From: Alphaproteobacteria bacterium
Lineage (GTDB): Bacteria > Pseudomonadota > Alphaproteobacteria > Bin95
Direction: 5' to 3'
Length of the DNA stretch: 64,000 nt
Assembly (NCBI GenBank): GCA_965205265.1
Contig: CBDBGH010000003.1
Coordinates: forward strand, 2,528,001 to 2,592,000
Shown here: piece after piece, positions 14,392-64,000 of the stretch
Layout of the letters: the number at the start of each line of letters is the position of its first letter
How positions within the stretch are numbered: position 1 is the first letter of the stretch
Notes under the pieces: generated by a model
The model's database searches: none
The model's input: only the letters and a program-made list of their open reading frames with translations
What the model was told of the DNA's origin: nothing
Translations under genes and position numbers: made by a program

Positions 14392-14517
14392 GTGCGGCGA
14401 CGGCGGGTCGGAATAAGGCGGACGGGGGACGCGCGCCTGGCCCCTTTCTTGCGCCGCATTCGAGATGCATGCGAGCGATCGGTGCTTACACGCTGAACTG
14501 ACCGAATGGCCGATTGC

Positions 14518-16147: not shown

Positions 16148-16264
16148 TACCCGAAGTTATAGGCATGAGCACCTGTTGTCATTGCGGGCCGCGCCGGCGG
16201 ATGCGACAGGATCGGAAATCATATCCTGTTCTGAAAAACTTCGGAATAATTCTCCTGAATGGGC

Positions 16265-16291
16265 TTGACATTTCCTCGTTTGTGCTATGAT
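16265..16291 (+). promoter_or_regulatory. Sigma70-like promoter with extended -10
   Basis: TTGACA (16265), 15 nt, TATGAT preceded by TG; spacer shorter than optimal. Confidence 0.45.
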
Positions 16292-16659
16292 GGCGGGGAG
16301 GGAGGAACGCGGCATCCGCGCGGGGCCGCCTTGCTTCCCCGGTTCGCGCCGGCGCGAAAAAAGCCCCCGATTCGGCCAACAGGCGAGGTGCGTCCTGCGT
16401 CCGGTTCGCGCGCGGGGGCGCGCCCGGGCAATCAGGCGCGCAAACCGCGCCGCCGCGAAACGCGCGCCCACGGGCGCGGGGGCGCCGGCGCGCATTACGC
16501 GCGAAACAGGGTCCCGCCGCATGGCGGGGCGGGCGAGGGAGAAGCGGAACGAAACGGGATGGAGGAACGACATGCCGGAATGCGAGAACGGGGCCCGGGC
16601 GGAGCGGCCTCCCGAAATCTCCCGCCCGCTTCCGGGGGAGAGGACGGAAGTGGCGGCTG

Positions 16660-16790
16660 AAAAGCCCTCTCCCTCGGGGAGAGGGTTGGGTGAGGGCCCG
16701 CTTCCGCGCCAGCGGAAGCGGCGGGCGCAAGCCCGGCGAAGGTCCGTCACGCGAGAGGGCCCCCTCCCGGCCCGCGCAAGCGGGAGAGGA
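16660..16790. repeat. REP-like hairpins (ccctctccc...gggagaggg type), related copies at 17634-17750
   Basis: gccctctccctcggggagagggttgggtgagggc and gcaagcgggagagg; counterparts at about 17634-17670 and 17712-17750. Confidence 0.75.
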
Positions 16791-16832
16791 GTATTACGGC
16801 GGCCGTCGGCCGGCCGGGGCGGCCGCCTCCCG

Positions 16833-17333
16833 TCATTGACCGCCGTTCGCGGGTTTGCAGGGTTCCGGCCTGCACCGCAGCACGATGTGCCGGCGCTCGA
16901 TTTCCCGGCGGAAGCGGTCGGGCAGACGGGCCCAGTCATGCGGCTGGACGAGGCGGGTTTCGCGGTCGAGGCCGTGGCGCCTCAGGAAGCGCTGCACCGT
17001 GGTCGGGTGGAACTCCAGCCCCTCGGCGGCGAGCGCGTCGCGCAGCCCGTACATGGAAAGCCCCGGCCGCCTCGCCAGGATGCGGAGGATGCGCTCCCGC
17101 TCCGGCTCGATCCGCGAGATGCTGCCGCCCTTCCTGTAGGGCCGCACATGGCCGCGCTCGCGAAGGCGCCGCACCCAATTGCCGACGCTTCTCCGCGTCA
17201 GGCCGAACCGCCGCGCCGCTGCGCGTATGCTCATGCCCTCGCGCAGCACGGCCGCCACCGCCGCCGCCCGCAGGTCCTCGCCCACCGCCCGGCCCCGCCG
17301 CCGCCCCGGCAATCCGTCCACGGGTCCGTCCAT
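16833..17333 (-). CDS. IS630-family transposase N-terminal HTH protein (no DDE domain)
   Basis: DLRAAAVAAV..GMSIRAAARRFG..VGNWVRR..GHVRP; FHPTTVQRFLRRHGL; no catalytic part seen; start codon uncertain. Confidence 0.65.
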   Translation of the reverse strand: MDGPVDGLPGRRRGRAVGEDLRAAAVAAVLREGMSIRAAARRFGLTRRSVGNWVRRLRERGHVRPYRKGGSISRIEPERERILRILARRPGLSMYGLRDALAAEGLEFHPTTVQRFLRRHGLDRETRLVQPHDWARLPDRFRREIERRHIVLRCRPEPCKPANGGQ

Positions 17334-17555
17334 CGCCCTGTCTTTTCCTCTGGCGATTCCGCCGCCGCGAACCGCCCCTTTCCGGCCGAAATCGACCGCC
17401 ACGCCCGGCCGTCCGGCCGCACCTCCCCTGTGGGTCGGCGGGGGCCCCGGTCAGCGGCCCTCACGCCTTCGGGTTCGGTGCTTCACAAGGGCGGCGCAAG
17501 CCGCCGCCGGTCGGTCAGGTCATGGCCTCTCTCGGCATGTTTTCTTGGTATAAGG

Positions 17556-17587
17556 GAATATATAGAGAACAAACAGCCCGGAGTCAA
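17556..17587 (-). promoter_or_regulatory. Alphaproteobacterial LexA-like box overlapping a sigma70-like promoter
   Basis: GAAT-N7-GAAC at 17556-17570 (consensus GAAC-N7-GAAC); TTGACT -35 on the minus strand at 17587-17582. Confidence 0.55.
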
Positions 17588-17829
17588 GCCATCCCTGTCG
17601 CCTCTTTCCGTTGTTGCGGCTGCCTGCCTTTGCTCCCCTCCCGCTGGGCGGGAGGGGTTGGGGGAGGGCCTCTCAACGTGACGGGGCTTCGCCCGCCGGC
17701 CTGACGGCCGGCCCCTCACCCGGCCTCTCTCCGCAAGCGGGGAGAGGGGAATTGTTGCGGCTGCCCACCGTGCGGCGTTGACGGCGGAAGGCGCACCGGT
17801 GCAGGGGCCTACCGCATGCACACATCTCG

Positions 17830-17855
17830 CCGCACCTTCGGTGCTAACCATCTGA
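17830..17855. repeat. Conserved motif upstream of integrases 1 and 3 (second copy 21632-21658)
   Basis: ccgcacctt(g)cggtgctaac(c/t)atctga, about 120 bp before both start codons; contains a GCACC/GGTGC palindrome. Confidence 0.8.
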
Positions 17856-17950
17856 CATGATTGTGGATTTTTCCCGTTTCCGGTGCAACCGGGCGCGCGA
17901 AAGGCACCCCGGTTTCGCACCTACGTGCAAAGGATCGGGGAACCGCAGTC

Positions 17951-19078
17951 ATGGCCGCCATTCGCCTCACCCAACGCCGGGTCGATACCCTCCGGCCGCA
18001 CAAGACTGTCCGCACTGTCCGGGACGCAGAACTGAAGGGATACGGCGTCCGCATCACGCCCTCGGGCAGGAAGCGGTACTTCATTCACAGCCAGTACCGG
18101 GGCCACCGGGTCTGGAAGATCGTCGGCGATGCGGCGGTCATGACCGAGGCCGAGGCGCGCGCCCGCGCCAGATCCATACTGGCGGCACTGCACGACGACA
18201 GGGACATCGAGGTGGAGGCGTCCGGCGACGCGCTGTTCGAGACCGTCGCCGAGGAGGTCTTCTCCCGCTACGGCAGGCGCTGGAAGCCGCGCACGCTTGC
18301 GGTCAACCGCCGCTATCTCAGCAATCAGATCCTGCCCTTCTTCACGGGCCGGCCGGTTGCGGATATCACCCGCGAAGAGGTGCAGCGCTGGTTCCGCTCG
18401 CTCCATGCTACGCCCGCGGCGGCGAACCGTTCGGCGCCGATCCTCTCCGTCATCATGCAGCAGGCCGAAGCTTGGGGGTATCGTCCCGATGGCGGCAATC
18501 CCTGCAAGGGGATCAAGCGCTACCGGCAGAAGCGGTCCGAGCGTTTCCTGTCTCCGGAGGAATACCGCCGCCTCGGCATGGCGCTGGATCGGCATGAGGC
18601 CCGGCAGCCGTTCCGGGTTGCGGCCCTGCGCCTGCTTCTGCTGACCGGCTGCCGCAAGTCGGAGATCGTCACCCTGGAATGGCGCTTCTACCGCGACGGC
18701 AGGCTCTACCTGGCGGACAGCAAGACCGGTCCCCGCACGGTCTGGCTGTGCAGCGCGGCGCGGAAGGTCCTCGACGGGCTGCCGCGTTCGTCGCGCTTCG
18801 TGTTCCCCATCGCAGGCCGGACCACGCCGTGGAGCTGGCTGGACGCCTTCTGGATGCAGTTGCGCGTCGAGGCGGGTCTCGAGGACGTTCGCCTGCATGA
18901 CACCCGCCACTCTTTCGCTAGCATGGCGCTGTCGAACGGCGAGACGATCCGCACGGTGGGCCGGCTGCTGGGTCATGACAATGCGGCGACCACGCTGAAA
19001 TACGCGCATTTGTCCGACGCCACGGTCCGGGAGACGGTCGAAGCGCTGGCGCCGCTGCTCTCGGGGGCGCAGTCATGA
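17951..19078 (+). CDS. Tyrosine integrase with arm-DNA-binding domain (first of a tandem pair)
   Basis: RDAELKGYGVRI arm domain; TGCRKSE, LHDTRH, LGH, KYAH catalytic residues. Confidence 0.93.
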   Translation: MAAIRLTQRRVDTLRPHKTVRTVRDAELKGYGVRITPSGRKRYFIHSQYRGHRVWKIVGDAAVMTEAEARARARSILAALHDDRDIEVEASGDALFETVAEEVFSRYGRRWKPRTLAVNRRYLSNQILPFFTGRPVADITREEVQRWFRSLHATPAAANRSAPILSVIMQQAEAWGYRPDGGNPCKGIKRYRQKRSERFLSPEEYRRLGMALDRHEARQPFRVAALRLLLLTGCRKSEIVTLEWRFYRDGRLYLADSKTGPRTVWLCSAARKVLDGLPRSSRFVFPIAGRTTPWSWLDAFWMQLRVEAGLEDVRLHDTRHSFASMALSNGETIRTVGRLLGHDNAATTLKYAHLSDATVRETVEALAPLLSGAQS

Positions 19079-20238
19079 CCGGCAGGACGAGGAAAGTCCG
19101 TCTCACGAATGCCAGCGTCGCGAGACTGAAGCCGGGCGGCACCGAGTACATCGTGCGCGACATTCGTGTTGCCGGTCTGGGCGTGCGGGTTCGTCCGTCC
19201 GGGCATCGCAGTTTCGTGTGGCACGGGACCGTGAAGGGCGGGATTGTGCGCACGACCATCGGTTCGGCCACGCTGATGACGGTGGAGGAAGCCCGGAGCG
19301 CATGCCGGGCCTTTCTCGACGGCTCGCATCCCCTGTGTGCTGGAGACCTTGCCGATCAGGCTGCCGTTCCGTATTTCCGCGATTTCGTCATGGAAGACTG
19401 GCTCCCGGCATACCGGGGTCGATACAGCCCAGGCTGGGGAAAGCGCGTGGACCGCATGGTGAAACGACAACTTCTCCCTGCCTTCGGCGCGCTGCGTCTC
19501 GACCGCATCGGCAGACCCCATGTCGAGCGCTGGTTCGACGCCATGAGTCGCAAGACACCGGGCGCGGCCAACACGACACTCGCCGTGCTACGCCAGATCG
19601 TGGGCGCCGCGAAAGCCGCCGGCCATATCGGGACCGATCCGGTTGCGGGCGTCAGGCCGAACCCGGGCAGGAAGATGACCCGGTTCCTGTCCGCCGAGGA
19701 GATCGCCCGGCTTCACCGGACCCTGGACCGGCTTGTGGAGGAACGGCCCTCGCGCCGGCCGCAGGCCGACGTCATCTGCCTGCTGTTACTGACCGGTTGC
19801 CGGAAGAGCGAAATCCTGACGCTCAGATGGTCGGAGGTCGATGGCGACGTGCTCAGATTGGTGGAAGCCAAGACGGGGCCGCGCACGGTCTGGCTGAGCG
19901 AGGCGGCGCAGGCCGTTATCGCCCGACAGCCCCGCACGCACAGCGCCTTCGTCTTTCCCTCGCCCAAGGACCCGGCAAGGCCGCAGTCCCGCAATCTCGG
20001 TCTCTGGCGCCGGGCGCGGCGGGAAGCCGGGATCGAGGATGTGCGCCTGCATGACCTGCGCCATACGGTAGCGAGCCAGGCCGTGGCCCGGGGCGTCCCG
20101 CTGTCGACCGTCGCCCGAATGCTCGGTCATACGCAGCCGGTCATGACACTCAGATACGCCCATGTCGGGGACCACGAAGTCGAGGACGCGGCGGAGCGTG
20201 TAGGGTCAATCATCGCGGCCGCCATGACAAGCGCCTGA
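19075..20238 (+). CDS. Tyrosine integrase with arm-DNA-binding domain (second of a tandem pair)
   Basis: RDIRVAGLGVRV; TGCRKSE, LHDLRH, LGH, RYAH; ATGA overlap with integrase 1. Confidence 0.93.
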   Translation: MTGRTRKVRLTNASVARLKPGGTEYIVRDIRVAGLGVRVRPSGHRSFVWHGTVKGGIVRTTIGSATLMTVEEARSACRAFLDGSHPLCAGDLADQAAVPYFRDFVMEDWLPAYRGRYSPGWGKRVDRMVKRQLLPAFGALRLDRIGRPHVERWFDAMSRKTPGAANTTLAVLRQIVGAAKAAGHIGTDPVAGVRPNPGRKMTRFLSAEEIARLHRTLDRLVEERPSRRPQADVICLLLLTGCRKSEILTLRWSEVDGDVLRLVEAKTGPRTVWLSEAAQAVIARQPRTHSAFVFPSPKDPARPQSRNLGLWRRARREAGIEDVRLHDLRHTVASQAVARGVPLSTVARMLGHTQPVMTLRYAHVGDHEVEDAAERVGSIIAAAMTSA

Positions 20239-20507
20239 ATGGCAACCGGGACATTGAGAGCTTGCCGGACAATGTCCGCGTTGTCTTCGGATTCAGGTGC
20301 GAAGAGCGATGATCGCAGCCCATCTTGCCTGCATTTCCGCATTCGACACAACGCCGGTCGTCACGCTTGAAGATACTCGACAGGTCGCTGCCCGGTATCG
20401 AGCATCAAGGCAGACACGATGGCGATTCATGCTATAGTTTCCATCCTGCTAAAGGCCCGATCTGGGCGAGACATGTAGGACGCGGCTTTTGGGATCAGGT
20501 CATCATC

Positions 20508-21080
20508 ATGTTTGACTGGCAAATTGTAGCGACGATAGCGGCTCCGATAATCGCTCTCTTTGTGGGCATTTGGGTTAGTCGCCGGTTTGAGAGCCGCCCG
20601 ATAGTGCTCTCCCACTGGGGGCATGTCTCTTCCTTCAATCACGAGAGTATTGATGGCACCATAACTACAATAAACACCCACTCTGTTGTTCTCAGGAATG
20701 TCGGACGCCGTGCAGCGACCAACGTACGAATGAGTCATTTTCGTCTGCCATCATTCAATATATGGCCTCCCGTCCAATATACAGTGGAGCAAGTGCCTAA
20801 TGCAGGAGAGGAAATTGTTATCCCTATCATGGTTCCAGATCAGCATTTGACTGTTTCATATCTTTACTTTCCTCCAATTACTTACGCTGAAGTTAACAAT
20901 GGTGTAAAATTCAATGAAGGATTTGCTACCCCTATACCAGTTCTACTGCAACGACAATATTCGCCTTGGTTTACAAAAATTGTTGGCGCAATTTTAATTT
21001 TAGGGATCGCCACTCTGTTGTTCGGTGTATTTGAAATTGGAATATTTGTCGCCGAATTAATTTACCAAGAGCCTGATTAA
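20508..21080 (+). CDS. Hypothetical membrane protein (low GC)
   Basis: N- and C-terminal TM helices around a beta-rich middle; markedly AT-rich codons. Confidence 0.75.
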   Translation: MFDWQIVATIAAPIIALFVGIWVSRRFESRPIVLSHWGHVSSFNHESIDGTITTINTHSVVLRNVGRRAATNVRMSHFRLPSFNIWPPVQYTVEQVPNAGEEIVIPIMVPDQHLTVSYLYFPPITYAEVNNGVKFNEGFATPIPVLLQRQYSPWFTKIVGAILILGIATLLFGVFEIGIFVAELIYQEPD

Positions 21081-21169
21081 TTTACTTGTCCTACCGGGTC
21101 TATATCATCTGCCCGAATGACCGAGCCATTATGGTAGCCTGCGAAACCTCACTCCCGGAGCACAACAGG

Positions 21170-21610
21170 ATGGCGGAACCTCAACCGACCGTTCAGGATA
21201 TTGAAGATCTGGTCGCCTTTCTACCCAAGCTCTACGGGCACGGCGCGCAGCCTGCCGGGAAGCTGATTACGGGCGAGGAGACAGCGGACGGGACGCCGAC
21301 CCTGCCTCGGTATGAATATGGCGAAGCGGTCGAAAGCTTCTTCAACACGATTGTGAGGCAGGGCTGTTGGCTGGACCACGACTATGACCCGGAAGAGGCC
21401 GAAAGACTGCTCATGGACGAAGCGGCCGTCGCGTGTGCGACGGTTCCAGAGATTCGCCGCTTGCTGACCCTGGTTGTCCGGGGTGAGCGCTTTTGTGACG
21501 GCTGGTGGTCTTCGATGATCGAAGAAGGCCATGTCCGCCGATTGCTTGAGCGCCTCACCGAGATCAACCATGCCGAACAGGCGGCAATCCGCTCGGGAAA
21601 CGCGGTATGA
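21170..21610 (+). CDS. DUF6508-like protein
   Basis: LLTLVVRGERFCDG...GHVRRLLERL signature. Confidence 0.72.
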   Translation: MAEPQPTVQDIEDLVAFLPKLYGHGAQPAGKLITGEETADGTPTLPRYEYGEAVESFFNTIVRQGCWLDHDYDPEEAERLLMDEAAVACATVPEIRRLLTLVVRGERFCDGWWSSMIEEGHVRRLLERLTEINHAEQAAIRSGNAV

Positions 21611-21749
21611 CGCCCGACCGCCTCACCGCCCCCGCACCTTGCGGTGCTAACTATCTGATATAGCGTCGTTTTTCTCCCGAAAATTTGCAACTGGGGAACT
21701 GGACTGCAACTCCCGGTTCCCCGGCTGCAACCAGAACCGGGAGAAGGAC

Positions 21750-22183
21750 ATGCCCAGGACTACCCTGACTGCGGCCCGCATCGGGGCGCTCAGGCCCCGC
21801 AAGGCAAGCCGCGACATCCGCGATGCTGAACTGCGGGGTTTTGGCATCCGCGTGTCGCCTTCGGGCCGCAAGCAGTTCTTCGTCCAGTGCCAGCATCGCG
21901 GCGAGCGCGTCTGGAAGATCGTGGGCGACGCTGGGACCATGAACATTTGCGAGGCGCGAGCCCTGGCGATCGAAATGCTTGCCGCCATCCGGCGGGGCGG
22001 GGAGGCTCCGCGCCGTCCCGACGAGACCCTTTTTGAGGCCGTCGCCGCGACCGTGTTCGAGCGCCATGCGCGGCTCTGGAAGTCCGGAACGCTCAAGGTG
22101 AACCGGGGCTATCTTCGCAGCCAGCTCCTGCCGCATTTCGCCGGGCGGCAGATTGCCGACATCGACCGGCAGGAGGTGAGGAA
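21750..22183 (+). pseudogene. N-terminal part of a third integrase (paralog of 17951-19078), cut by the group II intron
   Basis: RDAELRGFGIRVSPSGRK, VWKIVGDA, LFEAVA, YLRSQLLPHF align with integrase 1; similarity stops at GTGCG 22184. Confidence 0.9.
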
Positions 22184-24108
22184 GTGCGCCAGGCTAACTG
22201 GTGCCAGTGTAGCCGGTGAAAGTCCGGCAGGAAGGAGAAGGTGAGCCACCACTTCCACCCCGAGTCATGGGCCGTCGCTCGCGAGGGCGGGGGTCAAGCG
22301 TTGACAGGGGCGCGTGCGGACAGGGCTATCGAGCACCGAAAGATCCTTAGTCCGGGATGCCGAGACCTTTTCCTCGGTCGAAGGCAGCATCCGACCCACC
22401 GTTATGGCGAGGGGGGTCGGAGTCCCGCGGTGTCCAAGAACCCATGCACGTACGTAAGCACTGCACCGGGACCTGGGAGGTCTCCATGCCATCCCGCTGT
22501 CGTGGCAGGATCGCAAAGGAAAGGAGTAGTCCGTAACCGATGATGAACGGCATGGAGAAGTCAGACTCGGCCATAGTAGCCGTGAAGCCGGCGAACAAAG
22601 GGGCGTCAGCCTCGGCGGAGCCGGTGGAGCCAAGGGCCGAGCCCAAGGGGAATCCGGAAGGCCAAAGCACGCGCCGGACGCAGAACCGGGAAAGCGTGTC
22701 ACAGGCGGCCGACCGGATACGGCAGTTTGTACAAAGGGAACGCAAGGTGCGTCTCACGACGCTCCTTCACCATGTCACGGTCGATGCGCTTCGCTGGGCG
22801 TTCTTCGAGCTAAAGAAGAACGCGGCGGCGGGCGCGGATGGCATGACGTGGCGGATGTACGGGAAGGAACTGGAAGGCCGCTTGGCCGACCTGCACGACC
22901 GCGTGCATTCGGGAGCGTACCGGGCGACGCCATCGCGACGGGTGAACATCCCGAAGCCGGATGGCGGTACACGACCGCTCGGCGTCGCGGCCATCGAGGA
23001 CAAGATCGTCCAGAAGGTCGTGGCGGAGATAATCCTGACGCCGATCTACGAGGCGGAGTTCCTGGGGTTCAGCTACGGGTTCCGGCCCGGTCGTGGGGCG
23101 CACAATGCGCTCGATGCGATCGCGGTCGGCATCGACAAGTTCAAGATCAACTGGGTGGTCGATTGCGACATCCGCAAATTCTTCGACACGGTGTCGAGGG
23201 ACTGGCTGGTCCGGTTCCTTGAACACCGCATCGCGGACAAGCGGGTCATCAGGCTGATCATCAAGTGGCTGAACGCCGGCGTCATGGAAGATGGAGAGAG
23301 GCGGGACGACCTGCGGGGGACCCCGCAGGGATCGGTGATTTCGCCGATCCTGGCGAACGTCTACCTGCATTACGTCCTCGATCTCTGGTTCCATAAGAAG
23401 TGGCGCAGCCACGAGGTCTACGGCGACGCGATCATCGTGCGGTACGCCGACGACTTCGTGGTTGGTTTCCAGCACAAGCAGGACGCGGAGCGATTTCTGG
23501 ATGCCCTGAAGGAGCGGTTCGGAAGCTTCGAACTGGAACTGCATCCCGACAAGACCCGGCTCATCGAGTTCGGGCGATTTGCCCCTAGAAACCGTCGGCG
23601 ACGAGGGCAGGGCAAACCGGAGACTTTCGACTTTCTGGGCTTCACGCACTACTGCACGGAGACCAGAGGCGGGCGTTTCCAGTTGGGGCGCAAGCCGGTT
23701 GCGGAGCGGATGGCCCGCACACTGAAGCGGATAAAGGAAGCGCTATGCAGCCGAATGCATGACAACGCCGCAGGCGAGGTGGCTGGGCAAGGTGCTTGAC
23801 GGATGGCTGAACTACTTTGCCGTCCCGATGAGCCACCGATACCTGAGCCGCTTCGCCTCGCGCCTGAAGCGGATGTGGATCGCGATCACGCGCCGCAGAT
23901 CGCAACGGGACCGCTTCGGCTGGGCACAGGTCGACAAGTTGACGACCAAGTACTGGCCCAAGGTGGAAATCCGGCACCCGTGGCCGAACCGACGACTTGC
24001 CGTCAGCGTGTATGGGAACAGCGCAACCCGAGGGAGGAGCCGGATGCCTTAGCGGGCACGTCCGGATCTGTGCGGGGGGCGCCGGGCAACCGGCGTCCCT
24101 ACCGCGAT
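22184..24108 (+). mobile_element. Group II intron (IIB-like, no endonuclease domain)
   Basis: 5' GTGCG; EBS1-like loop TTCCTC (22370-22375) complementary to exon end GAGGAA (22178-22183); domain V gagccggatgcc...gcacgtccggatc; domain VI hairpin; 3' end ...cgcgAT. Confidence 0.93.
22540..24052 (+). pseudogene. ltrA: Group II intron reverse transcriptase/maturase, frameshifted near 23760-23780
   Basis: PKPDGGTRPLG, SYGFRPG, DIRKFFD, GTPQG, RYADD in 22540-23799; domain X (WLGKVLDGWLNYFAVP, RRSQR) continues in another frame to 24052. Confidence 0.9.
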
Positions 24109-48972: not shown

Positions 48973-49764
48973 TCAGTCCTCCTCTTCGGGGCTTGTCCGC
49001 CCGGCTCCGGGGGAGCCTGCCCCGGCCTCCGAGCCGGGTGGCCAGGCTCCCACCGATCCGGGACCATTCCCCGGATCGGTGTCCCCCGGATCGGTGTCCG
49101 GGGCAGGCGGGGCAGGCCGGTCCTCGACCGGAATCTCCGTAATCCGCAGCCGCGATCCCGTCTGTTCGACCAGACTCGGCGTGAACCCGAGGCCGAAGCG
49201 CGCGGCGAGGCGCCCGCCCTGGTCGAAGAAGAAGGGCCGGCGGTGCCGCCGCATCAGGTCGAGCGGCCGCCCGGCGAGCAGCACGATCTTCGCAGGACGC
49301 CCGCTTTCCTCTTCCCGGGCGAGCGCCCAGGCGATCTCCGCCGCGCGCCGGCCGTCGACGAACAGCAGGTCGCGGGCGAGCGTGGTGCGCTCCAGCGGGT
49401 TGACCCGCGTGCCGGCAGCGGCGATGAGCGCGCCGTCGGCCGTCCGGATATCCCGCGCGACCGTGATGGCCGGATCGAACAGGCGGCTGCGTTCTTCCCT
49501 CGCCGGCGCGATGCCGGCCACCGGGTCCGGTTCTTCCAGCTTCCTCCGGGCATTGGCGCGGGCCTCTCGTTCCAGCCGCGCCAGCTCGCCGGAGCGTTCC
49601 ATTTCGAGAAGGCGCGCCTCGATCTGCGCCAGCAGGTCGGGCTCGGCGACCGGCCAGGTCGCGCCGCGCACACCCAGGTCTTCCGCCGAGACCGGAAGCG
49701 GAGTTGCGGACGCCATCACCGCGCCGAGCGTCGTGGCGAGCAGCAAGGCAGCAGCGCGCTTCAT
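48973..49764 (-). CDS. traW: Type-F conjugative transfer protein TraW
   Basis: DLGVRGATWPVAEPDLL, FDP, GTRVNPL, FFDQGG. Confidence 0.93.
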   Translation of the reverse strand: MKRAAALLLATTLGAVMASATPLPVSAEDLGVRGATWPVAEPDLLAQIEARLLEMERSGELARLEREARANARRKLEEPDPVAGIAPAREERSRLFDPAITVARDIRTADGALIAAAGTRVNPLERTTLARDLLFVDGRRAAEIAWALAREEESGRPAKIVLLAGRPLDLMRRHRRPFFFDQGGRLAARFGLGFTPSLVEQTGSRLRITEIPVEDRPAPPAPDTDPGDTDPGNGPGSVGAWPPGSEAGAGSPGAGRTSPEEED

Positions 49765-50351
49765 GGTCTTGCCTCCGGCCCCTTGTCGTCGCCGGTGTCT
49801 TCCGGCCCGACCAACGGTCCGTTCAGTCCCAGCCAGGGAATGTCCGGCATGGCGACGGCGCGTCCGAGGATGCGGTCGCGCGGCACCAGCCCGATCTCGG
49901 CGTAGCGGCTGTCATGGCTGTCCGTGTGGTCGCCGTGCAGGTAGAAGTGTCCCGGCGGGACGATCCCGGGCGCGATCGCCGCGAGCGGCCGCCCGTCGAG
50001 CGCATGGGTCTTGGCCCGGCCCACCGGCTCGCCGTCCAGAAACACCGTTCCGTCCGTCCCGACCGCGACCGCCATGCCCGGCACGCCGCGCACTGTCTTC
50101 AGGTAGGGAACCCGGGAACCGACGGCCTCCGGCGGCTCGAACAGCACGCGGTCGCCGGGCTTCGGGTCCTCGCCGAACAGAGGGAAGGCGGCATAGCCCC
50201 AGGACCCGTCCGACCAGGAGGCGTTGACATGCACGCGCGACGCCGCGCCCAGCCAGACGGCCGCCAGCACGACCATGACGGCGAGGCCGATATGCCGGCC
50301 ACGGCGCGAACGGCCTGCCCTCGGTGAGAGTTGCAGCCCCCGCGCGCTCAT
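49761..50351 (-). CDS. S26-family conjugative signal peptidase (TrhF-like)
   Basis: VNASWS Ser region, YLKTVRGVPG, SHDSRY..IGLV. Confidence 0.88.
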   Translation of the reverse strand: MSARGLQLSPRAGRSRRGRHIGLAVMVVLAAVWLGAASRVHVNASWSDGSWGYAAFPLFGEDPKPGDRVLFEPPEAVGSRVPYLKTVRGVPGMAVAVGTDGTVFLDGEPVGRAKTHALDGRPLAAIAPGIVPPGHFYLHGDHTDSHDSRYAEIGLVPRDRILGRAVAMPDIPWLGLNGPLVGPEDTGDDKGPEARP

Positions 50352-54712: not shown

Positions 54713-56026
54713 TCACTGTCCTTTCTGCGCGGTGCGGACCGGCGCGCGACCGTCGATGCGGGCGCCTTCGAGGAACACCAGCGTCACCTTCGTGCCGGCC
54801 TGGAGCTGGATCACCGGCTGGTACTGCTCGGCCCGGCGGATCATGTAGTCGGCGACCTTCTGACCGGCGGTCGACGCACCCGCCCCGAGGCCGGCCCGGC
54901 CAATGTCGGAGAGCGCGGTGTTGGCGACCGCGGCGCCCGAACCGGTCGCGACCGCCTGGGGCTGGAACGCCTGCGCGACGCCCTGGCCGATGCCGGAGAT
55001 CATGCCGGCGAGGAACGCCTTCTCGACCAGCGCGCCTTCGCGGCTCACCACCGGACCGCGCACGCCGGTCTTGCCGGAACCGGCGACGAAGCCCGCGACG
55101 TCGGTCTCGATCACCGTGCCGGACTCCGGTCCGGCGCAGGTCATGGTGCGGAAGCGGACATAGACCTTCTCCGAAGAGAGGTCGCCATGGGCGGCGCCCG
55201 TGACGGTGCAGCCGTCGACGTCGACAGCCAAGGCGGTCCCCTCCTCGGCCGCCGTCCAGGCGGGTCCCGTGATGCGCAGCAGCACCGGGCGGGGATCGCC
55301 CTGGGACGAGACCCCGGCCGAGGCGTCGACGCCCGCCAGCACCACGGCCTCGGCGTGGGCGCCCGCCGGCAGCCACACCGAGACCGGCTTGGCGACGGCG
55401 TCGGCGACCAGCTCCGGTCCGCTGCGGGGATCGGCCAACGACGATTGCGGCGCACCTTCCAGCTCGAAGGTCTCGATCATGCGTCCCGGCAGGGCCTGCC
55501 CCGGCCCCCGAGCCGGGGGCGCCTCCGGTTGCGCCTGTCCCCGGAACCAGGGGTCGTTCCCCGGCGCAGCGCCTGCCGCATTGCCCGGGGAGGCGGGCGG
55601 CTGGAGCCGGCGCTCCAGCTCGTCGATCACGGCCGCCTGGCGGTCGATCGTGCGGCGCGCGTCGACGCCGTCCTGCTCCAGCTTCGCGCGCAGCCGCTCG
55701 TTGTCGGCGCGCAGCGTCCGCGCGTCCTGCCGCAGCTCGCGAAGCTGCGTCTCGATCCCGCCGAGCCGGGCCTCGGAGCGCCGGGTCCAGACCTGCTCGG
55801 CGGCGTCCGGCCCGGCGATCTCCGCCTCGATGCCGCCCTGCGGCGCGCGCTCCTTGCCGCCGCCCATGCCGAGCCACGCGGCCACCGCGACCAGGAACAC
55901 CGCCCCAATGACCGAAAACAGCAACAGCTGGCGCCGCCGCACCGCCCCGGCGTCGCCGCCCGCCCCGGCCCACGACCTGTCCGGGCCCCCGGGCCGGGAG
56001 CCGGAGGCGTCCGCACGGGCGCTCAT
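54713..56026 (-). CDS. traB: Pilus assembly protein TraB
   Basis: TM plus coiled coil, LAGVDA, GDLSSEK, GVRGPVVSREG, RAEQYQPVI. Confidence 0.93.
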   Translation of the reverse strand: MSARADASGSRPGGPDRSWAGAGGDAGAVRRRQLLLFSVIGAVFLVAVAAWLGMGGGKERAPQGGIEAEIAGPDAAEQVWTRRSEARLGGIETQLRELRQDARTLRADNERLRAKLEQDGVDARRTIDRQAAVIDELERRLQPPASPGNAAGAAPGNDPWFRGQAQPEAPPARGPGQALPGRMIETFELEGAPQSSLADPRSGPELVADAVAKPVSVWLPAGAHAEAVVLAGVDASAGVSSQGDPRPVLLRITGPAWTAAEEGTALAVDVDGCTVTGAAHGDLSSEKVYVRFRTMTCAGPESGTVIETDVAGFVAGSGKTGVRGPVVSREGALVEKAFLAGMISGIGQGVAQAFQPQAVATGSGAAVANTALSDIGRAGLGAGASTAGQKVADYMIRRAEQYQPVIQLQAGTKVTLVFLEGARIDGRAPVRTAQKGQ

Positions 56027-57396: not shown

Positions 57397-57690
57397 TCAG
57401 CCGACGAAGCGCCGGAGGTGGCTCGGCGGCGTCGCCCTGAGCCGCAGCACGAAGTCCGGCAGGAACCAGTAGAGGGCGTAGCGCGCGATGTTGGCCCCGC
57501 CGCCGCGCTTGACCCGGCGCAGCAGCAGCCAGCCGCCGACGCCGGCAACGAGGCCGGGCACGAACTGGTTGGCCGCGAGTCCGAGCAGGGCCGGGCCCAT
57601 CAACGCGGCCGCCTCGTCGACGGTCCAGAACATCCAGCGCTCCGGATCGTCGAGCCGGCGCGGGATGGTGTGGCGGGCGGTGTCGTTCAT
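57397..57690 (-). CDS. traL: Pilus assembly protein TraL
   Basis: IPRRLDDPERWMFWTVDE, LYWFLP, TPPS. Confidence 0.93.
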   Translation of the reverse strand: MNDTARHTIPRRLDDPERWMFWTVDEAAALMGPALLGLAANQFVPGLVAGVGGWLLLRRVKRGGGANIARYALYWFLPDFVLRLRATPPSHLRRFVG

Positions 57691-57707
57691 GGCTGCCGAC
57701 CTTCGGC

Positions 57708-58247
57708 TCAGACGATCGCCGTGCCGACGAGGCCGGTGACGATGCCGGTGCCGGCGCCCGCCGCGATGCCGACGCCGACCGCGCCCATGAGCTGCATCGC
57801 ATTGAAGCGCAGCACCGAGCCGACCAGTGCGGCGCCCACGGCGAGCGCGGCGGCGAGCTGGCCGCCGGTGCCGCCGACGATCCCTTCCACCGTGTCGAGC
57901 GGATCGTCGAACGTGGTGTCGGTGGTCGCGAACGCGGCGTCCGGTCCCGCGAGCAGCAGCGCGACGCCGAGCGCCGCCACCGCCGCGCAGCGCAGCGCGG
58001 GACCGAGGCCATCCCCCGGTCCGGGGCCTGCCCCGGATTCCGGCCCGGGGTCCACGGTCGAGTTGCGCTCGCGCTTCGCCGCCCACTCGTCGAGATGCTC
58101 GCGCCGGTAGCGCACCCGGCCGCCGAAGCGGTTGAACACCGGGCCCTCGCCGGTCACCCGGTAGCGTTTCAGGGTGCGGTGCGACAGCCGCAGATAGCGG
58201 GCCGCCTCGACCGTCGTGAAAAATATCTGTTCGTCGGCCACCGTCAT
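57708..58247 (-). CDS. Fusion of an excisionase/RdfS-like HTH_17 domain and TraA-like propilin
   Basis: aa 8-62 TTVEAARYLRLSHRTL..YRVTGEGP.F..FGGRVRY...LDEW; aa 83-107 signal peptide ending AFA; aa 108-179 two-helix pilin ending TAIV; sits directly before traL; GTG at 58241 may be the real start. Confidence 0.85.
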   Translation of the reverse strand: MTVADEQIFFTTVEAARYLRLSHRTLKRYRVTGEGPVFNRFGGRVRYRREHLDEWAAKRERNSTVDPGPESGAGPGPGDGLGPALRCAAVAALGVALLLAGPDAAFATTDTTFDDPLDTVEGIVGGTGGQLAAALAVGAALVGSVLRFNAMQLMGAVGVGIAAGAGTGIVTGLVGTAIV

Positions 58248-58342
58248 TCTCCTTCGTCTCCGCCTGCCCCGGACGCCGATCCAGGACGCCGCGCTCTGCG
58301 GCCCGGTCCGCGATTGAAACGGCGCGCCCGGCCCGCCGTAAG

Positions 58343-58405
58343 GGTCGATTTGCGAGTCGCAAAACCGACCTCCCCAGGCGGTGCCTCACGGTGCCCTGCG
58401 GTGCC
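58343..58405. promoter_or_regulatory. Inverted repeat plus three phased direct repeats upstream of the tra operon
   Basis: GGTCGaTTTGCGAgTCGCAAAacCGACC (58343-58370); CGGTGCC at 58379, 58389 and 58399. Confidence 0.6.
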
Positions 58406-58569
58406 GGGAGGGCGATCGCCCGAGGACCGGCAGATCGCCCCGGACCGGTTCCGGGGACCGGGACAGGCGCGCCGGCACGCCGGCCGCAATGTTTCGGACG
58501 GGCGCGCGGGCAGCGGATTCGGGAACGGGGGAGCGGTTCGGGACCGCCTCGCGGAAACGCCGGACCGCG

Positions 58570-59372
58570 CTACGTCGCGGAGGGATCCGGCTTGCGCTGA
58601 CGGCGGCGCTTGCGGCGCGGCTCGAGGAACGCCGCGCTGTAGCCGCCGTCCCTCAGCCCCTTCGCCTTCTCGATGCGGCGCCTCGACTTCGAGCGCGGTC
58701 CCCCGTTGGGGTCCCAGGGCTCCACCGCGTCGGCCTCGAGAACGTCCAGCGCAATGTCCCGCTGCGACTTCTCCGCGCCGAGCGCGTCCAGGACCTTCAG
58801 AAGCTCGTCGTGCTCCTTGCCCGGACCCGGCGCCTCCGAGGAGGGGGCGGGCGTCCCGTCACCCGCCACAGGTCCTCGATCCGCCCGACCGCCGCCTCCA
58901 GCGGCAGGCTCAGCCCGAGCTTCGCCATGATCCCGTCGCCGGGGCCGAACGCGCGGCCCGACGGCACCAGGATCTGCAGCAGCGCGTTGCCGAGCTCCGC
59001 CTTGAGAACGAACCGGCCGTCGAGCAGCCTCAGCCCCTCGACCCGCGCTCCTGCTTCCGTCAGAAGCCCCAGCAGCGGCGCCGGGTCGGGCCAGGGGTCC
59101 GGGTCGGGCTCGCCGACGAGCATCGGGATGCCGGACCAGAAGGGCGAGCGCCAGACCTCCGCTTCGGGGTCCTCCCAGGCGAGCAGCGCCCACTCCGCTT
59201 CCGCCCGCAGGTCGGCCTCGGTCTGCACCCGGAGCGGGAACCCCGCATCCTCGAAGCGGGGCGGGGCGGCATGCACCGCCCATGCCTCGCGGTAGTCGGG
59301 GTTGCGCCGCATGTAGGCCCAGGCATGGCCCCCGAGGACCGCGTCCCGGTCCGCGCCCCTGACGCGGCTCAT
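58570..59372 (-). pseudogene. DUF6499-DUF2285 (FseA-like) transcriptional activator split by a -1 frameshift near 58820
   Basis: AWAYMRRNPDYREAW in the 59372 frame; LKVLDA..SQRDIA..W....RSKSRRRI.KAKGL.DGGY in the frame ending at 58570. Confidence 0.75.
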
Positions 59373-59394
59373 CTCCCGGGTTGCCGCCGGGTGC

Positions 59395-62300
59395 CTACCA
59401 ACGGGCGGTAAACCCGAAGCCTATCCTGTGCTCGGGCGGGGTGTTGTCGTTGACGCTCTCGTTGCGCAGCGCCTCGACCTTGAACTCGAAGGTCCGCGGA
59501 CCCTGCCGCTCCGGCGTCAGACGCCAGCCGAGCGCGTAGTCGCGCCCCGTGTCCGACAGGCCCAGCGCGACCTCCGGCGTCCCCGTCAGCCGGCCGCCGA
59601 ACGCCGGCACGCCGTAGCCCAGCCGCGCCTCGAAGCGCCGCCGGTCCCAACTATTGTCGTTGGCCGCAAGCCCCGCCAGATCGTCGCGCGCGAGCAGCGC
59701 GTCCACGCCGCCCGCATCGGTCGCCCCCAGGGTCTGGCTCAGCGTCAGCTTCGGCCCGCGCTCCGTGTCCGGCCGCGGGTCCCAGGTCAGCCCGCCCGAG
59801 ACCCCGCGCTCGCTGAAGCCCGAGTCCTCGTGGGTCAGCAGGCCCCGCGCCTTGACCTCGGCCGACAGCCCGCGCTCCGGGTCGGACCACGCCACGCCGC
59901 CGCCGACCTCGGTGCCGAACCCGGTCTCGGCGTCGCCGCCGTCCACCCTGAGCCCGATCTCCGCGCTCGGCGTCAGCGTCGCGCCGCCGCCGACCGCGAA
60001 GGTCCGGCTGCCGTCCAGCACCAGCCGGAGCCGCGTCGCCTCGCCCTCGCTCGCCGCCATGCCCGGCACGGCATCGCTCTCCGTGCCGACCCACATCGCG
60101 TCGGACCGCACGTTGAGCGCGATGCCGTCCTCGCCGTCGAGCAGCCGCCCGGTGACGCCGACCGCGGCCATGCGCATCCGCACGTCGGTCTCCATGGCGC
60201 GCTCGCCCTCGGGCTTCAGCGTGAGCCTGCCCCAGCCCGCGCCGGCGAGGCCCGCCACCGACACCCGTTCGGTCAGGTCGAACTTGGCGTAGGGCCAGAC
60301 CCCGGTCAGCGCGCTCTCGACGTCGCCCTTGCCGGCCGGGCCGCCGTATGTGCCCTCGCCCAGGCTGTGCGAGACCATCACGCCCGCCAGCAGCCGGTCC
60401 CACTCGGCGTCGGCGCCGAGGAAGCCGGTCGTGACCGTGCCGTCCAGGTCGAGCCCGCCGGCCTCGCCCTCGAAGGCGGTGGTCGCGAACCGGCCCCACG
60501 CGGCGAAGCCCGGACCGCCCGCCTCCTTGCGGCCGGAGGCCGCGAGGTGGAACGACGTGCCGAGCAGGAACTGCTCCAGCGTCATGGTCCGCAGCCCGGT
60601 CCCGCCGCCGTGCGGGTCGCTCCCGTGCAGGCCGCGGTCGCCGGTGTACTGCCACCACGGCCGTTCGGCCCCGGCGCCGAGCGCCATTCCCTGCGCCGTG
60701 CCGTCGGACGTCCCGTCCGACGCCGCGCCGCCGGTGACGGCCTGTCCGCCGAGCGTGCCGTGCGAGCCGCCGGTCTCGGCGAACCGGCTGCCGAGCGCGT
60801 CCAGCGCCTGGCTGCCGACGGTGCGGCCCATCCGCACCAGCCACGCCCCCGGCATCGGGTCCGTGTTGGTTATCGTGCCGACCGCGTCGCCGTCGACCTT
60901 GCGCAGGCCGGAGGGGTTCGACAGCACGAGCAGCAGCTCCTCCTCGCCCTCGTCATGCGCGTCGTCCAGCACCGGCACCGACACCGTCTTCTCCGTCTCG
61001 CCCGGCGCGAACAGCAGCGTGCCCGAGGTCGGCGTGTAGTCGTAGCGCGGATGCGCCGTCCGGGCGACGGTCCGGTAGTCCACCGACGCCAGCGCGTCCG
61101 GCGCACGGTCCAGCGTCACCCTAAACGCGAGCACCGCGCCCGGCGCCTCGCGCACCCGCGCATCGGCCACCGACACGCCCGGCAGGGATCCCGGCGCCGC
61201 CTGCGGCTCCCGCGCCTTCTGCGGCTCCGCGAGCTTCTTGCGCAGCCACTTCAGGCCGCCGTTGTTGACCTTCGCCCGCGCCGGACCCCAGCCCTCTTCC
61301 TCCGGGTCGCCCAGGAAGAAGCGCGGCAGCACCGAGTTCGAGACGCCCGCGAGTCCGTCCACCTTGTCGGAGCCCGTCACCGTGCGCACCGTGTACGAGG
61401 CCCACTCCGCGCCGTCGAGCAGCCCGACCGCCGTGTCGTAGCGGCCCGTCGCCGCGGTCCCGTCGTCCGGGTCGTGGTAGATCGTGAACGAGACCGGCTC
61501 GGGCTCCGGCTCCGGTTCCGGCTCGGCGGGGGCCTCGTCGTCGTCGCGCACCGTCACCGCCGCGCTCGACGCCGCGCCCAGGTTGTAGCCGTCGCCGTGG
61601 TCCAGCGTCACCGTCACGCTGCCGTCCGGCTCGTCCGCGTCGTCGCCCGCCGTCGGCACCTCGATCGTCGCGCTCGTGGCGCCCCCGTCGATGGCGAGCG
61701 TCTTCGCGCCCTCATCGTCCGCCGCCACGAACTCGCCGTCCTCCGACACGCCGTAGGCGAGCGTCAGCCCGCCTTCCGGCGCCGCCTCCGAGAGCGTCAC
61801 CGTGAACGACGCCGCCGTGCCCTCGTCCACCGCCGGGCCGGCGGCAAGCGTGACATCCAGCGACCACGGCGAATGGCGCACCCGCACCGGCTCGCGCCCG
61901 TTGTAGTGCCGCCGGTCGAGCGCGTTCACCTCCACCAGCCAGTGCCGCGCCGCGTCGAAGTTCGGGATCTGCAGGCTGCAGCGGTCGTCCGCGCAGGTGC
62001 GGACGTCCACGATCTCGAAGCCCTTGTTCCGCGCGCCCCGCGACTTCCGCTTCGCCAGCCGCTTCGTGCCGCTCGCCCAGGCGACCGTGTAGTCGTCCCG
62101 CACCGACGGCACGCTCCAGGTCACCAGCCCGGTGTCCGAGACCGCCACGTTCTCCGGCACGCCGGTGAGGTTCAGCACCTCGCCCGGCGCCGGCGTGTGC
62201 CGCGCCGCCGCCGCCGGCAGGCCCTTGATCGGCCGCTCCGCATTGTTCACCTCGACGAGGTAGTGGTAGCGGGCGTCGAAGTCCTCGATCCGGGTCTCGC

Positions 62301-64000
62301 AGCGCCCCTCGGAGCACTGGAACTCGTGGACCGTCGCCTGGCCGGTATTCACGAAGCCCAGGTCCATGTACGACGGCGCCACCTCGTCCCAGTTCCATTC
62401 CACCCAGTACTTGATCCGGCCGTCGGGCGCCGTCGCCTTGTCCAGGGTCCAGGTCACCACCCCGGTGTCCGACACCGCGAGGTTGCGCGGCACGCGGTTC
62501 GGATCCCGCGGCGGCAGCGGCACGAATTCCGTCTTGTCGTCGTCGACGACGGTCAGCATGGCCCCCGCGCTCGGGAACCCGCCGACGCTGGCCCGGAAGT
62601 ACACCCTCTCGTCGCCCTCCTCGGCCGTGTCGTTCGTCGGCGTCACGGTGAGGTCGATCGACCCGCTCGCAGCGCCGGCCGGGATGGCGAACTCGAAGGT
62701 GGTCGGACAGGACTTGCCGGCGGACGCAATGCCGAGGTCGGTGCCGTAGGTGGCGGTATCGCCCTCCCGGCCGCAGGCCAGGATCACGTCGGCCGCGGTC
62801 GCCAGCGTCCCGCCGACCAGGGTCGCGGTCGCCGTCACCGTCCGCGCGCCGCCGTCCTCGGCGATGCGCGACGGGCTGAGACTGAGCTCGATGCCGGTGA
62901 CCACGGCCGGCGGCGTGACGGCGGGGCAGTTCTGCGTCGCGGCGACCACCGCCAGCTCGACCTTCTGGCCGTTGGTCCAGGTCAGGCCGGAGGGGTCCCA
63001 GTCGACTCTGCTGGCTGCCCCCGTAAAGGGGTTCCAGCCGGGCGTCTTCGTGAACGCCGTGCCGTCCACGCAGAACTTGTAGCTGCCCGTCGCGCTGCCC
63101 GTCAGATCCCCGTAGGCTATGCTCAGGCCGCTGCCGACGAGAAAGACGCCGGTGAGCGCCCGCGTCGCGCCCTGGTCCGTCATGCTGCTGCTGGTGATCG
63201 AGCCAATGCCCGTGTCAGCACTCCAGCCCCGTTGGAGCGTACCCCCCACCGTCAGCGTTGCCGACCAGACGGGCATGACGGACGCCGCGTCATCGTCGTC
63301 TTCCACCGCCACCGAGGTGCTTGTCGTCGCGCCCAGCGTGTAGCCCGTGCCGGCGTTCAGCGTCACCGTCACGGTGCCGTTGGCCTCGTCGTCCCCGTCG
63401 TCCACCGTGGGGACGTTGTAGGTCCCGGTCGTGGCGCCGCCGGCGATGTCCAGCGTCTTGGCGCCCTCGTTGCCCGAGGCCACGTAGTCGTCGTCCACCC
63501 CCTCCGACACCGTCAGGTCGATGGTGAGGCCGCTCGCCGGCGCCGCGCTCGACAGCGTCACCGTGAAGCTCGCGTCCGTGCCCTCCGTCACCGGAGAGGT
63601 GCCCGCCGCGATGGTGGCGGTCGGCAGCACGCCAGTCAGCGTCCCCGTGATCTCGCTCTGGGCCTGGGGCGCCTCCAACTGGTCGACGGCGCTCACCCGG
63701 ACGTCATACGCCGTATCCGCCGTCAGGCCCGTCAGCTGCACCTCCGTGTCGGGGTCCGGACCCCTGTTGGTCGTCTGGCGGCTGCTGTCGTAGCTCTGCC
63801 CGGCGCTCTTCCACTCGATGATGTAGCTGTCGAAGGTGACGCCGGTCGGCGCGTCCCAGTCCACGTCGAGCTTGGTCGGCTCGCCGTCGACCGCGGCCAC
63901 GGTCAGGTTCGGGATCGCCGGCAGGTCGTTGTCCTGCACCGTCACCGCCGCGCTCGACGGACTGCCCAGGGTGTAGCCCGGCGCCGACAGGAGCGTCACC
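59395..64000 (-). CDS. Giant surface protein/autotransporter with FN3 and Calx-beta domains (5' end outside the window)
   Basis: Over 1530 aa; Calx-beta repeats (FAPGETEKTVSVPVLDD.HDEGEE), FN3-like modules, C-terminal beta-barrel ending IGFGFTARW. Confidence 0.88.
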   Translation of the reverse strand, partial: VTLLSAPGYTLGSPSSAAVTVQDNDLPAIPNLTVAAVDGEPTKLDVDWDAPTGVTFDSYIIEWKSAGQSYDSSRQTTNRGPDPDTEVQLTGLTADTAYDVRVSAVDQLEAPQAQSEITGTLTGVLPTATIAAGTSPVTEGTDASFTVTLSSAAPASGLTIDLTVSEGVDDDYVASGNEGAKTLDIAGGATTGTYNVPTVDDGDDEANGTVTVTLNAGTGYTLGATTSTSVAVEDDDDAASVMPVWSATLTVGGTLQRGWSADTGIGSITSSSMTDQGATRALTGVFLVGSGLSIAYGDLTGSATGSYKFCVDGTAFTKTPGWNPFTGAASRVDWDPSGLTWTNGQKVELAVVAATQNCPAVTPPAVVTGIELSLSPSRIAEDGGARTVTATATLVGGTLATAADVILACGREGDTATYGTDLGIASAGKSCPTTFEFAIPAGAASGSIDLTVTPTNDTAEEGDERVYFRASVGGFPSAGAMLTVVDDDKTEFVPLPPRDPNRVPRNLAVSDTGVVTWTLDKATAPDGRIKYWVEWNWDEVAPSYMDLGFVNTGQATVHEFQCSEGRCETRIEDFDARYHYLVEVNNAERPIKGLPAAAARHTPAPGEVLNLTGVPENVAVSDTGLVTWSVPSVRDDYTVAWASGTKRLAKRKSRGARNKGFEIVDVRTCADDRCSLQIPNFDAARHWLVEVNALDRRHYNGREPVRVRHSPWSLDVTLAAGPAVDEGTAASFTVTLSEAAPEGGLTLAYGVSEDGEFVAADDEGAKTLAIDGGATSATIEVPTAGDDADEPDGSVTVTLDHGDGYNLGAASSAAVTVRDDDEAPAEPEPEPEPEPVSFTIYHDPDDGTAATGRYDTAVGLLDGAEWASYTVRTVTGSDKVDGLAGVSNSVLPRFFLGDPEEEGWGPARAKVNNGGLKWLRKKLAEPQKAREPQAAPGSLPGVSVADARVREAPGAVLAFRVTLDRAPDALASVDYRTVARTAHPRYDYTPTSGTLLFAPGETEKTVSVPVLDDAHDEGEEELLLVLSNPSGLRKVDGDAVGTITNTDPMPGAWLVRMGRTVGSQALDALGSRFAETGGSHGTLGGQAVTGGAASDGTSDGTAQGMALGAGAERPWWQYTGDRGLHGSDPHGGGTGLRTMTLEQFLLGTSFHLAASGRKEAGGPGFAAWGRFATTAFEGEAGGLDLDGTVTTGFLGADAEWDRLLAGVMVSHSLGEGTYGGPAGKGDVESALTGVWPYAKFDLTERVSVAGLAGAGWGRLTLKPEGERAMETDVRMRMAAVGVTGRLLDGEDGIALNVRSDAMWVGTESDAVPGMAASEGEATRLRLVLDGSRTFAVGGGATLTPSAEIGLRVDGGDAETGFGTEVGGGVAWSDPERGLSAEVKARGLLTHEDSGFSERGVSGGLTWDPRPDTERGPKLTLSQTLGATDAGGVDALLARDDLAGLAANDNSWDRRRFEARLGYGVPAFGGRLTGTPEVALGLSDTGRDYALGWRLTPERQGPRTFEFKVEALRNESVNDNTPPEHRIGFGFTARW

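Follow-up and report, generated by a model that had tools for sequence, protein, structure and literature searches.

A predicted RdfS-like DNA-binding domain fused to the leader of a putative F-type conjugative pilin

The transfer operon of the F plasmid has the gene order traY-traA-traL-traE-traK-traB. The pilin encoded by traA, VirB2 of the Ti plasmid and TrbC of RP4 are all made with leaders of ~36-51 amino acids (aa) that are unstructured and are removed by signal peptidase.

In the integrative conjugative element (ICE) ICEMlSymR7A, published accounts place rdfS at the head of the conjugation operon, under the control of FseA, and report that it is needed for both excision and transfer (PMC11963761). 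RdfS also controls intS and its own promoter, and without it an oriT plasmid is no longer mobilised (PMC11963761). RdfS-type factors tie excision of the ICE to the start of conjugation, and control of a safe dose matters because excess RdfS, as produced by overexpression in Mesorhizobium, is reported to cure the element and to be bacteriostatic (PMC11963761, PMC10359603). The activator gene fseA is laid out in two frames and its product acts at the rdfS promoter (PMC10359603, PMC11963761). According to the same accounts, the N-terminal alpha-1 oligomerisation helix of RdfS is confined to the ICESym family, with non-ICESym homologues lacking it (PMC11963761).

Here we describe a family of elements in which the gene for a predicted factor of this type is locked to the pilin gene, usually by a 4-nt overlap and several times by full fusion within the secretion leader.

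Architecture and setting of the fused gene

The window, that is, the whole stretch of 64,000 nt that was analysed from a metagenome-derived alphaproteobacterial contig, contains an ORF of 179 codons without interruption, with the following features.

57708-58247, minus strand: fused gene for an RdfS-like winged helix-turn-helix (HTH), a linker, a signal peptide and a putative pilin; 179 aa if read from the ATG, but probably 177 aa, with the GTG at 58241 as start
58249-58255, minus strand: GAAGGAG, a Shine-Dalgarno-like sequence seen by inspection, separated by 1 nt from the ATG at 58247 and by 7 nt from the GTG at 58241, both downstream of it
58071-58223, minus strand: winged HTH (HTH_17), residues 9-59, from Pfam, the match to 8dgl, the AF2 model (pLDDT >90) and the Foldseek match to 8dgl_A
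58002-58070, minus strand: conserved S-T-x-D tail and Gly/Pro linker, residues 60-82, predicted by AF2 to be disordered
58027-58049, minus strand: palindromic motif copy within the linker, CCCGG-N8-CCGGGGCAGG, in frame encoding PGPESGAG
57927-58001, minus strand: residues 83-107, made up of the signal-peptide core, with Arg86 and the hydrophobic helix 83-99, and the cleavage motif A-F-A, from AF2 and alignment with stand-alone pilin leaders
57711-57926, minus strand: predicted mature pilin, residues 108-179 (72 aa), with two helices, from invariant columns, AF2 helices and weak TrbC/TraA matches
58263-58285, minus strand: second copy of the motif, found by motif scan immediately before the fused gene's ribosome-binding site

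A preliminary description of this DNA, made from its letters alone, had reported an uninterrupted 179-aa ORF heading a tra operon, with an HTH_17 domain, a Gly/Pro linker, a signal peptide ending in AFA and a 72-aa two-helix pilin, and the ORF list, Pfam, the neighbouring genes, conservation and the AF2 model agree with it on each of these points. Translation probably starts at codon 3, a GTG that lies 7 nt after the GAAGGAG and is where homologues begin. No promoter or terminator was found by a scan of 57600-58700.

The HTH_17 match (PF12728) has an E value of 4.1e-12 and 46.6 bits against a Pfam cut-off of 27; the NCBIfam model TIGR01764 ('excise') gives 23.8 bits, under its cut-off of 28.8. 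Among solved proteins, RdfS of ICEMlSymR7A is the nearest to residues 1-66 (8dgl, phmmer E 4.1e-10), and Foldseek also ranks RdfS first (8dgl_A; E 8.5e-5, TM 0.73, rmsd 1.2 A, 45% identity over 51 columns), followed by BldC, MerR-type heads and other excisionases, so that the RdfS likeness originally proposed holds in both sequence and fold. By fold and gene context the HTH fits the RdfS type, and a role in excision is predicted for it. A profile search also found proteins (P0123, P0124, P0127, P0155 and others) with two or three RdfS-like HTH_17 units in tandem; most of these units end in an S-T-S-D-(D/P)-G tail, as does the HTH of the fused family.

The leader ends in A105-F106-A107, and in the alignment of homologues near-invariant conservation starts exactly after this motif. 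In the AF2 model, made with 54 fused homologues, pLDDT is <50 across residues 68-82 of the linker, the helix at 83-99 is the signal-peptide core and two further helices, 117-145 and 150-178, form the pilin part, where confidence is low (pLDDT 44-72). Between fused homologues the linker varies by 0-40 aa and the frame is always kept. Profile matches to known pilins fall under their cut-offs, with E 0.063 and 13.9 bits (cut-off 27.9) for the Pfam TrbC/VirB2 family (PF04956, residues 88-171) and E 0.008 and 16.2 bits (cut-off 50) for the NCBIfam model TraA_gammapb (NF041281, residues 107-176). The assignment as a pilin is thus a prediction from these sub-threshold matches, from the gene position, with traL 18 nt downstream, and from the topology, a signal peptide followed by a mature part of ~70 aa with two hydrophobic helices.

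The fused gene is followed on the same strand by traL, traE and traK. Next come traB (TrbI/TraB) and, further along, genes for TraC, an S26 peptidase, SSB, TraN, TraH and TraG, for a coupling protein and for a relaxase-helicase of the TrwC type. The set of TraL, TraE, TraK, TraB, TraC, TraN, TraH and TraG that defines the F type (MPF-F) is complete. The other features used below are these.

57397-57690, minus strand: traL, the next gene after the fused gene (PF07178, E 1e-29)
49761-50351, minus strand: S26 peptidase, TraF-like, in the tra region (PF10502, E 6.8e-18; TIGR02771, 59.7 bits, under the cut-off of 100)
58570-59372, minus strand: FseA-like activator in two frames, directly upstream of the fused gene, with a DUF6499-like ORF at 58797-59372 and DUF2285 in the other frame at 58573-58890
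17861-19078, plus strand: tyrosine integrase with an arm-binding domain

The transfer genes and the integrase lie on one element, which puts the fused gene at the head of the F-type operon of an ICE. The presence of the S26 peptidase, first noted by eye, is confirmed by PF10502. The two parts of the FseA-like gene match PF20109 (E 0.0056, under the cut-off) and PF10074 (E 1.5e-7, over the cut-off), and the gene resembles fseA of ICEMlSymR7A, a gene with programmed +1 frameshifting. Within the element there is no other HTH that matches the HTH_17 of the fused gene. A comparison of 12000-18000 with 58200-60500 for attachment-site repeats gave only 13-14-nt chance matches and there is no tRNA in the window; the intactness of the element is therefore unproven.

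The likeness to F lies in a small DNA-binding protein encoded directly before the pilin, with traL, traE, traK and traB next in both. In F, however, TraY is a ribbon-helix-helix protein, traY and traA are separate genes and the plasmid has no excision step. As in F TraA, Ti VirB2 and RP4 TrbC, the leader is unusually long and the mature pilin has two helices and ~70 aa, and some long-leader systems have a dedicated S26 (TraF-type) peptidase, as the window does. The leader here, however, has 107 aa and contains a folded DNA-binding domain, whereas the ~36-51 aa of those leaders are unstructured.

With RdfS (8DGL) the HTH shares the winged-helix HTH_17 fold and a place at the head of a conjugation operon, downstream of a two-frame FseA-type activator as described in PMC11963761 and PMC10359603; a tyrosine integrase is borne by the element in both cases. 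Only 8 residues precede the domain, hence the alpha-1 helix is absent, the AF2 model having no helix before residue 12. Further differences are that the rdfS operon continues with traF-msi107-rlxS whereas an F-type pilin comes next in the window, and that the HTH is fused to this pilin, or in relatives overlaps it, unlike RdfS, and has a function that is predicted.

Split and fused relatives

An in-frame junction between two genes could be an artefact of assembly or sequencing, for example if a long-read assembly has an indel within a run of G or C, and this junction is rich in G and C runs and lies on a contig from a metagenome assembly. The junction is, however, reproduced by Logan contigs from two runs, X1 (1906 nt, matching 57484-58500) and X3 (1655 nt, matching 57735-58500), which agree exactly, each with 0 differences and 0 gaps, although the two runs come from a single study, possibly on the source sample itself; the junction is not covered by a further run, X4. 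In-frame junctions are also present in dozens of other assemblies, including short-read ones (L009), with linkers that differ in length, and the gap to the split relatives far exceeds one base. An artefact is, we consider, highly improbable, and the read error named in the preliminary description as a possible source of the fusion is contradicted by the absence of indels in the X1 and X3 contigs. Contigs from an RNA run (X19) lie over traL and the pilin part, with zero over 58079-58500; they have many differences, derive from relatives, and come from a library that may hold DNA, so that they do not bear on expression.

In a collection of 5.8 billion proteins there were 975 hits, and the analysis covered the best 120. 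Among these 120 there are 63 long forms besides the query, 61 of which cover at least 91% of it; the fused forms make up about 60 protein clusters, and the remainder are 100-130-aa pilins, whose matches are confined to the C-terminal 36-69% of the query. Conserved HTH_17-pilin fusions, which the preliminary description suggested looking for with the full-length protein, are accordingly found in many independent assemblies. They are annotated publicly only as 'helix-turn-helix domain-containing' or 'excisionase family' proteins, and a full-text search of a limited literature collection found no description of an excisionase-pilin or HTH-pilin fusion, in line with the earlier remark that no described example was known. 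Among the 72,556 plasmids in PLSDB, 171 records match the HTH part only, none covers at least 80% of the query and no plasmid with the fusion was found.

A scan of genomes, with one genome per species, identified 80 loci, mostly in MAGs of Alphaproteobacteria, with some assigned to Binatia, Chloroflexota, Acidobacteriota, Nitrospinota and other groups. With the copies in the window's own genome included and a duplicate (L006) removed, there are 83 pilin places (L001-L003 and L009-L088) at which HTH and pilin were located by tblastn. The HTH is upstream and one frame off at 73 of the 83, in frame at five (the window, L001, and L009-L012) and absent within 600 nt at five. Fusion thus accounts for 5 of the 78 loci with an upstream HTH; in the other 73 the HTH lies directly before a separate pilin gene. 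The stop codon of the HTH gene is TGA in all 73 split loci, and in 71 of them it overlaps the start of the pilin gene (48 ATGA, 20 GTGA and 3 TTGA) and there is a purine-rich site upstream of the pilin start. These sequences point to two overlapping genes, presumably translationally coupled, as the usual state of the family and to fusion as the exception. HTH proteins of this pattern had been taken to be normally standalone, which does not fit the 4-nt overlap with the pilin start in 71 of the 73 split loci. The preliminary description would have given way to homologues with the HTH and the pilin as separate genes, and this is the situation in most relatives, a copy in the same genome included.

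As seen in L025, L039 and L002, the split form has the same HTH, a near-identical mature pilin and the same operon as the fused form, but consists of two genes with a 4-nt stop/start overlap, the pilin having its own start and ribosome-binding site; pilin output can therefore differ from HTH output. The pilin of the split relatives is always in the -1 frame and programmed -1 frameshifting was considered, but junctions inspected by eye have no slippery heptamer, and the frame is constant because of the ATGA overlap.

The copy in the same genome (L002; G000:C3:3279212-3279759) belongs to a second element and has the split GTGA form. This genome has four further HTH matches in addition to the split copy, and the paralogous HTH is only ~60% identical. 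In L002 the HTH occupies the C-terminal end of an ORF of 277 aa, which begins with a repeat domain. A third place in the genome, L003 (C3:4710711-4710896), is a lone pilin fragment with 90% identity to residues 118-179 of the query.

Across L009-L088 the mature pilin is 84-99% identical between genomes assigned to Alphaproteobacteria, Binatia, Chloroflexota/Dehalococcoidia, Acidobacteriota, Nitrospinota, Gemmatimonadota and Deltaproteobacteria. Some copies are on contigs of >1 Mb, many of the records are sponge or marine metagenomes, and some genomes have 2-4 copies. This distribution suggests that the element family moves across phyla in sponge and marine communities, with the qualification that short contigs may carry binning errors. 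The family is widespread in sponge-associated and other marine metagenome genomes and is a candidate vehicle of gene flow there.

Among the best 120 of the 975 hits, ~44 of the 64 long forms, the query included, share the junction type of the window, in which the S-T-x-D tail passes into the leader at G-(E/D)-R-P-G-P-A-L-R, with an optional Gly/Ser insert. A second junction type is found in eight clusters and several others are singular; five of these seem to be partly out of frame, perhaps through error. A tree was made from the TraL, TraE and HTH sequences of 68 of the 78 loci, ten being left out for an incomplete TraL or TraE. Fused loci occupy three places in it, each surrounded by split loci: L001, L009 and L010 group together (support 0.93), L012 pairs with the split L039 as its sister (support 0.985) and L011 stands apart. 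In-frame fusion is, on this tree, a derived minority state that arose at least three times, with the window in the largest fused clade. A profile search of 1.84 billion representatives added only a few further fused clusters (P0125, P0128 and P0219), of which the divergent P0219 suggests a further fusion event. L039 has an 11-nt direct repeat, with copies 38 nt apart that flank the ATGA, and a deletion between repeat copies of this kind would give a fusion of the L012 type. As most relatives have separate but overlapping genes, fusion is a small and recurrent step rather than a singular invention.

Synthesis, processing and role of the fused product

Codon 1 is the only in-frame Met before the mature pilin, which bears out the earlier observation that there is no in-frame ATG between the HTH and the signal peptide. 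The pilin might instead be made separately, from an internal non-ATG start, so that the fused ORF would not be its precursor, and there are candidates: in-frame GTGs include codons 65 and 90, and there is a CTG at codon 86, just ahead of a good signal peptide. None of the candidates is preceded by a ribosome-binding site, however, or conserved in the fused relatives. Codon 65 corresponds to TCC in L010, where the only candidate starts are GTGs that would give leaders of 62, 12 or 9 residues, and the candidates differ among L001 and L009-L012. There is also no stop in the upstream frame, so that ribosomes that start at the HTH enter the pilin in any case. A separately initiated pilin is, we judge, quite unlikely. 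An out-of-frame ATG at 58012 was considered as a relic of the pilin start and rejected as a coincidence, since the ancestral Met codon aligns 1-2 bases away.

Judged from these alignments, the pilin has lost its own start in the clade of the window. With no conserved internal start, the pilin of this clade is made with the HTH in its leader, as the preliminary description had argued. The mature pilin is near-invariant in the fused forms, as across the family, and is therefore still under strong selection; conservation of the frame despite linker variation, together with this invariance, is best explained by translation from the HTH start.

The in-frame fusion of overlapping genes, with one precursor translated from the HTH start and cut after A-F-A, is consequently the account that we regard as probable. 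Small changes at the shared stop/start junction would have generated the fusion, which then persisted in a diversified clade that includes the window. Translation from the HTH start would give a single precursor, with the folded HTH and the flexible linker in the cytoplasm and the hydrophobic core of the leader spanning the membrane, and signal peptidase would cut after A107 to free the 72-aa pilin. The HTH would be made one-for-one with the pilin and tethered to the membrane at first by the leader core; the HTH-leader fragment might later be freed by signal-peptide breakdown, which is a cellular process, and the HTH might act like RdfS on excision and transfer genes. TraF-type S26 peptidases act on the pilin itself and not on the cytoplasmic side, and the S26 peptidase of the operon more probably matures the pilin than frees the HTH. 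Should the domain remain active, the fusion would be a natural example of a regulator produced as a leader that is tethered to the membrane and can be cleaved.

Whether the HTH is still in use was evaluated by comparing its constraint in fused and split forms, and the results, though mixed, tend to favour continued use. Variability per column is correlated between 33 fused and 64 split proteins (Spearman 0.50, p 2e-4), nine columns of the HTH are invariant in 54 fused proteins, and HTH distances of fused pairs are at the 19th-22nd percentile of split pairs with the same TraL+TraE distance. The HTH thus shows no sign of relaxed constraint. Values of dN/dS for the HTH are 0.5-1.2 in fused and 0.13-1.05 in split pairs and do not point clearly to purifying selection, though with 58 codons and ~90% GC at third positions they carry little information; for the clade of the window, the DNA compared is from three loci.

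The fusion could alternatively be tolerated and functionless. Loss of the stop would be nearly neutral, given that the two genes overlap to begin with and that the leader is removed in any case, leaving the HTH as an inert leader extension, and excision or regulation would be provided by other copies or be dispensable. The repeated origin of the fusion by small changes, its minority status (5 of 78 loci) and an HTH dN/dS near 1 in several fused pairs, subject to the shortness and GC-richness of the domain, are in keeping with this, as are the split copy and the four further HTH matches in the same genome; the split copy could supply the function in trans. It is opposed by an HTH that has no in-frame indels, retains the same invariant columns as in split forms and diverges no faster than in split pairs, by the diversification of the fused clade, which has reached ~44 clusters (at 90% identity) and is found in MAGs from different lineages, and by the low identity of the paralogous HTH of the genome. 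We regard loss of function as rather doubtful.

Under the precursor account, the dose of the HTH needs consideration. With one HTH made per pilin and excess RdfS reported to be harmful in Mesorhizobium, tethering or rapid turnover may therefore be needed; if the domain is not inactivated, its production in equal number with an abundant pilin might do harm. A more specific proposal is that the excision factor is held inactive at the membrane in the pilin leader and is freed after insertion and cleavage, so that excision and transfer control would operate only in cells committed to a pilus and in proportion to pilin output, with the 4-nt overlap of the split form as a weaker coupling. This extension of the precursor account is speculative and, in our estimate, unlikely.

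The HTH may also be not an excision factor but a TraY-like relaxosome accessory protein or operon regulator, with the tie to the pilin serving control of the operon. Because the gene order mirrors that of F, a relaxosome or operon-regulator role is a live alternative that is compatible with a role in excision. It gains from the presence of HTH-part relatives on the 171 PLSDB plasmid records, where excision is not needed, and from RdfS itself, as PMC11963761 describes regulation of intS and of its own promoter and the arrest of oriT-plasmid mobilisation when it is lost. The closest solved protein, by both sequence and fold, is nevertheless a recombination directionality factor (RDF), and the element has a tyrosine integrase and no other detected HTH_17. 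An HTH with this role in place of excision is possible though somewhat unlikely, and since RdfS does both jobs, a regulatory role does not conflict with the precursor account.

Palindromic motif and neighbouring sequences

The palindrome reported at 58027-58050 is real, spans 58027-58049 and is one of 22 copies of the 23-nt motif CCCGG-N8-CCGGGGCAGG in the window (at most 2 mismatches; 2.0 expected by chance), which occur only between 26159 and 59380, within the conjugative element. Further copies are at 49016-49038, 49085-49107 and 55495-55517. The exact motif is present 22 times in the 5.7-Mb genome, six of these in the element of the window, compared with 1 for a reversed control, and 46 times in the 78 related loci compared with 0 for the control. 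Some sites are intergenic; others are read in frame and encode parts of TraN, TraB, SSB, the relaxase and the fused gene that are disordered. Possible identities of the motif are a REP-like insert, a hairpin in RNA and a site for protein binding.

Inside the element, 22537-24052 (plus strand) encodes a reverse transcriptase (RVT_1) followed by a weak group II intron maturase domain, and 19079-22536 has no ORF with the codon-position GC pattern of the host. Beside the element, an ORF of >1534 aa (59395-63999, minus strand) is open at the end of the window and has 213-nt repeats spaced 1755 nt; its C-terminal part is, by eye, autotransporter-like.
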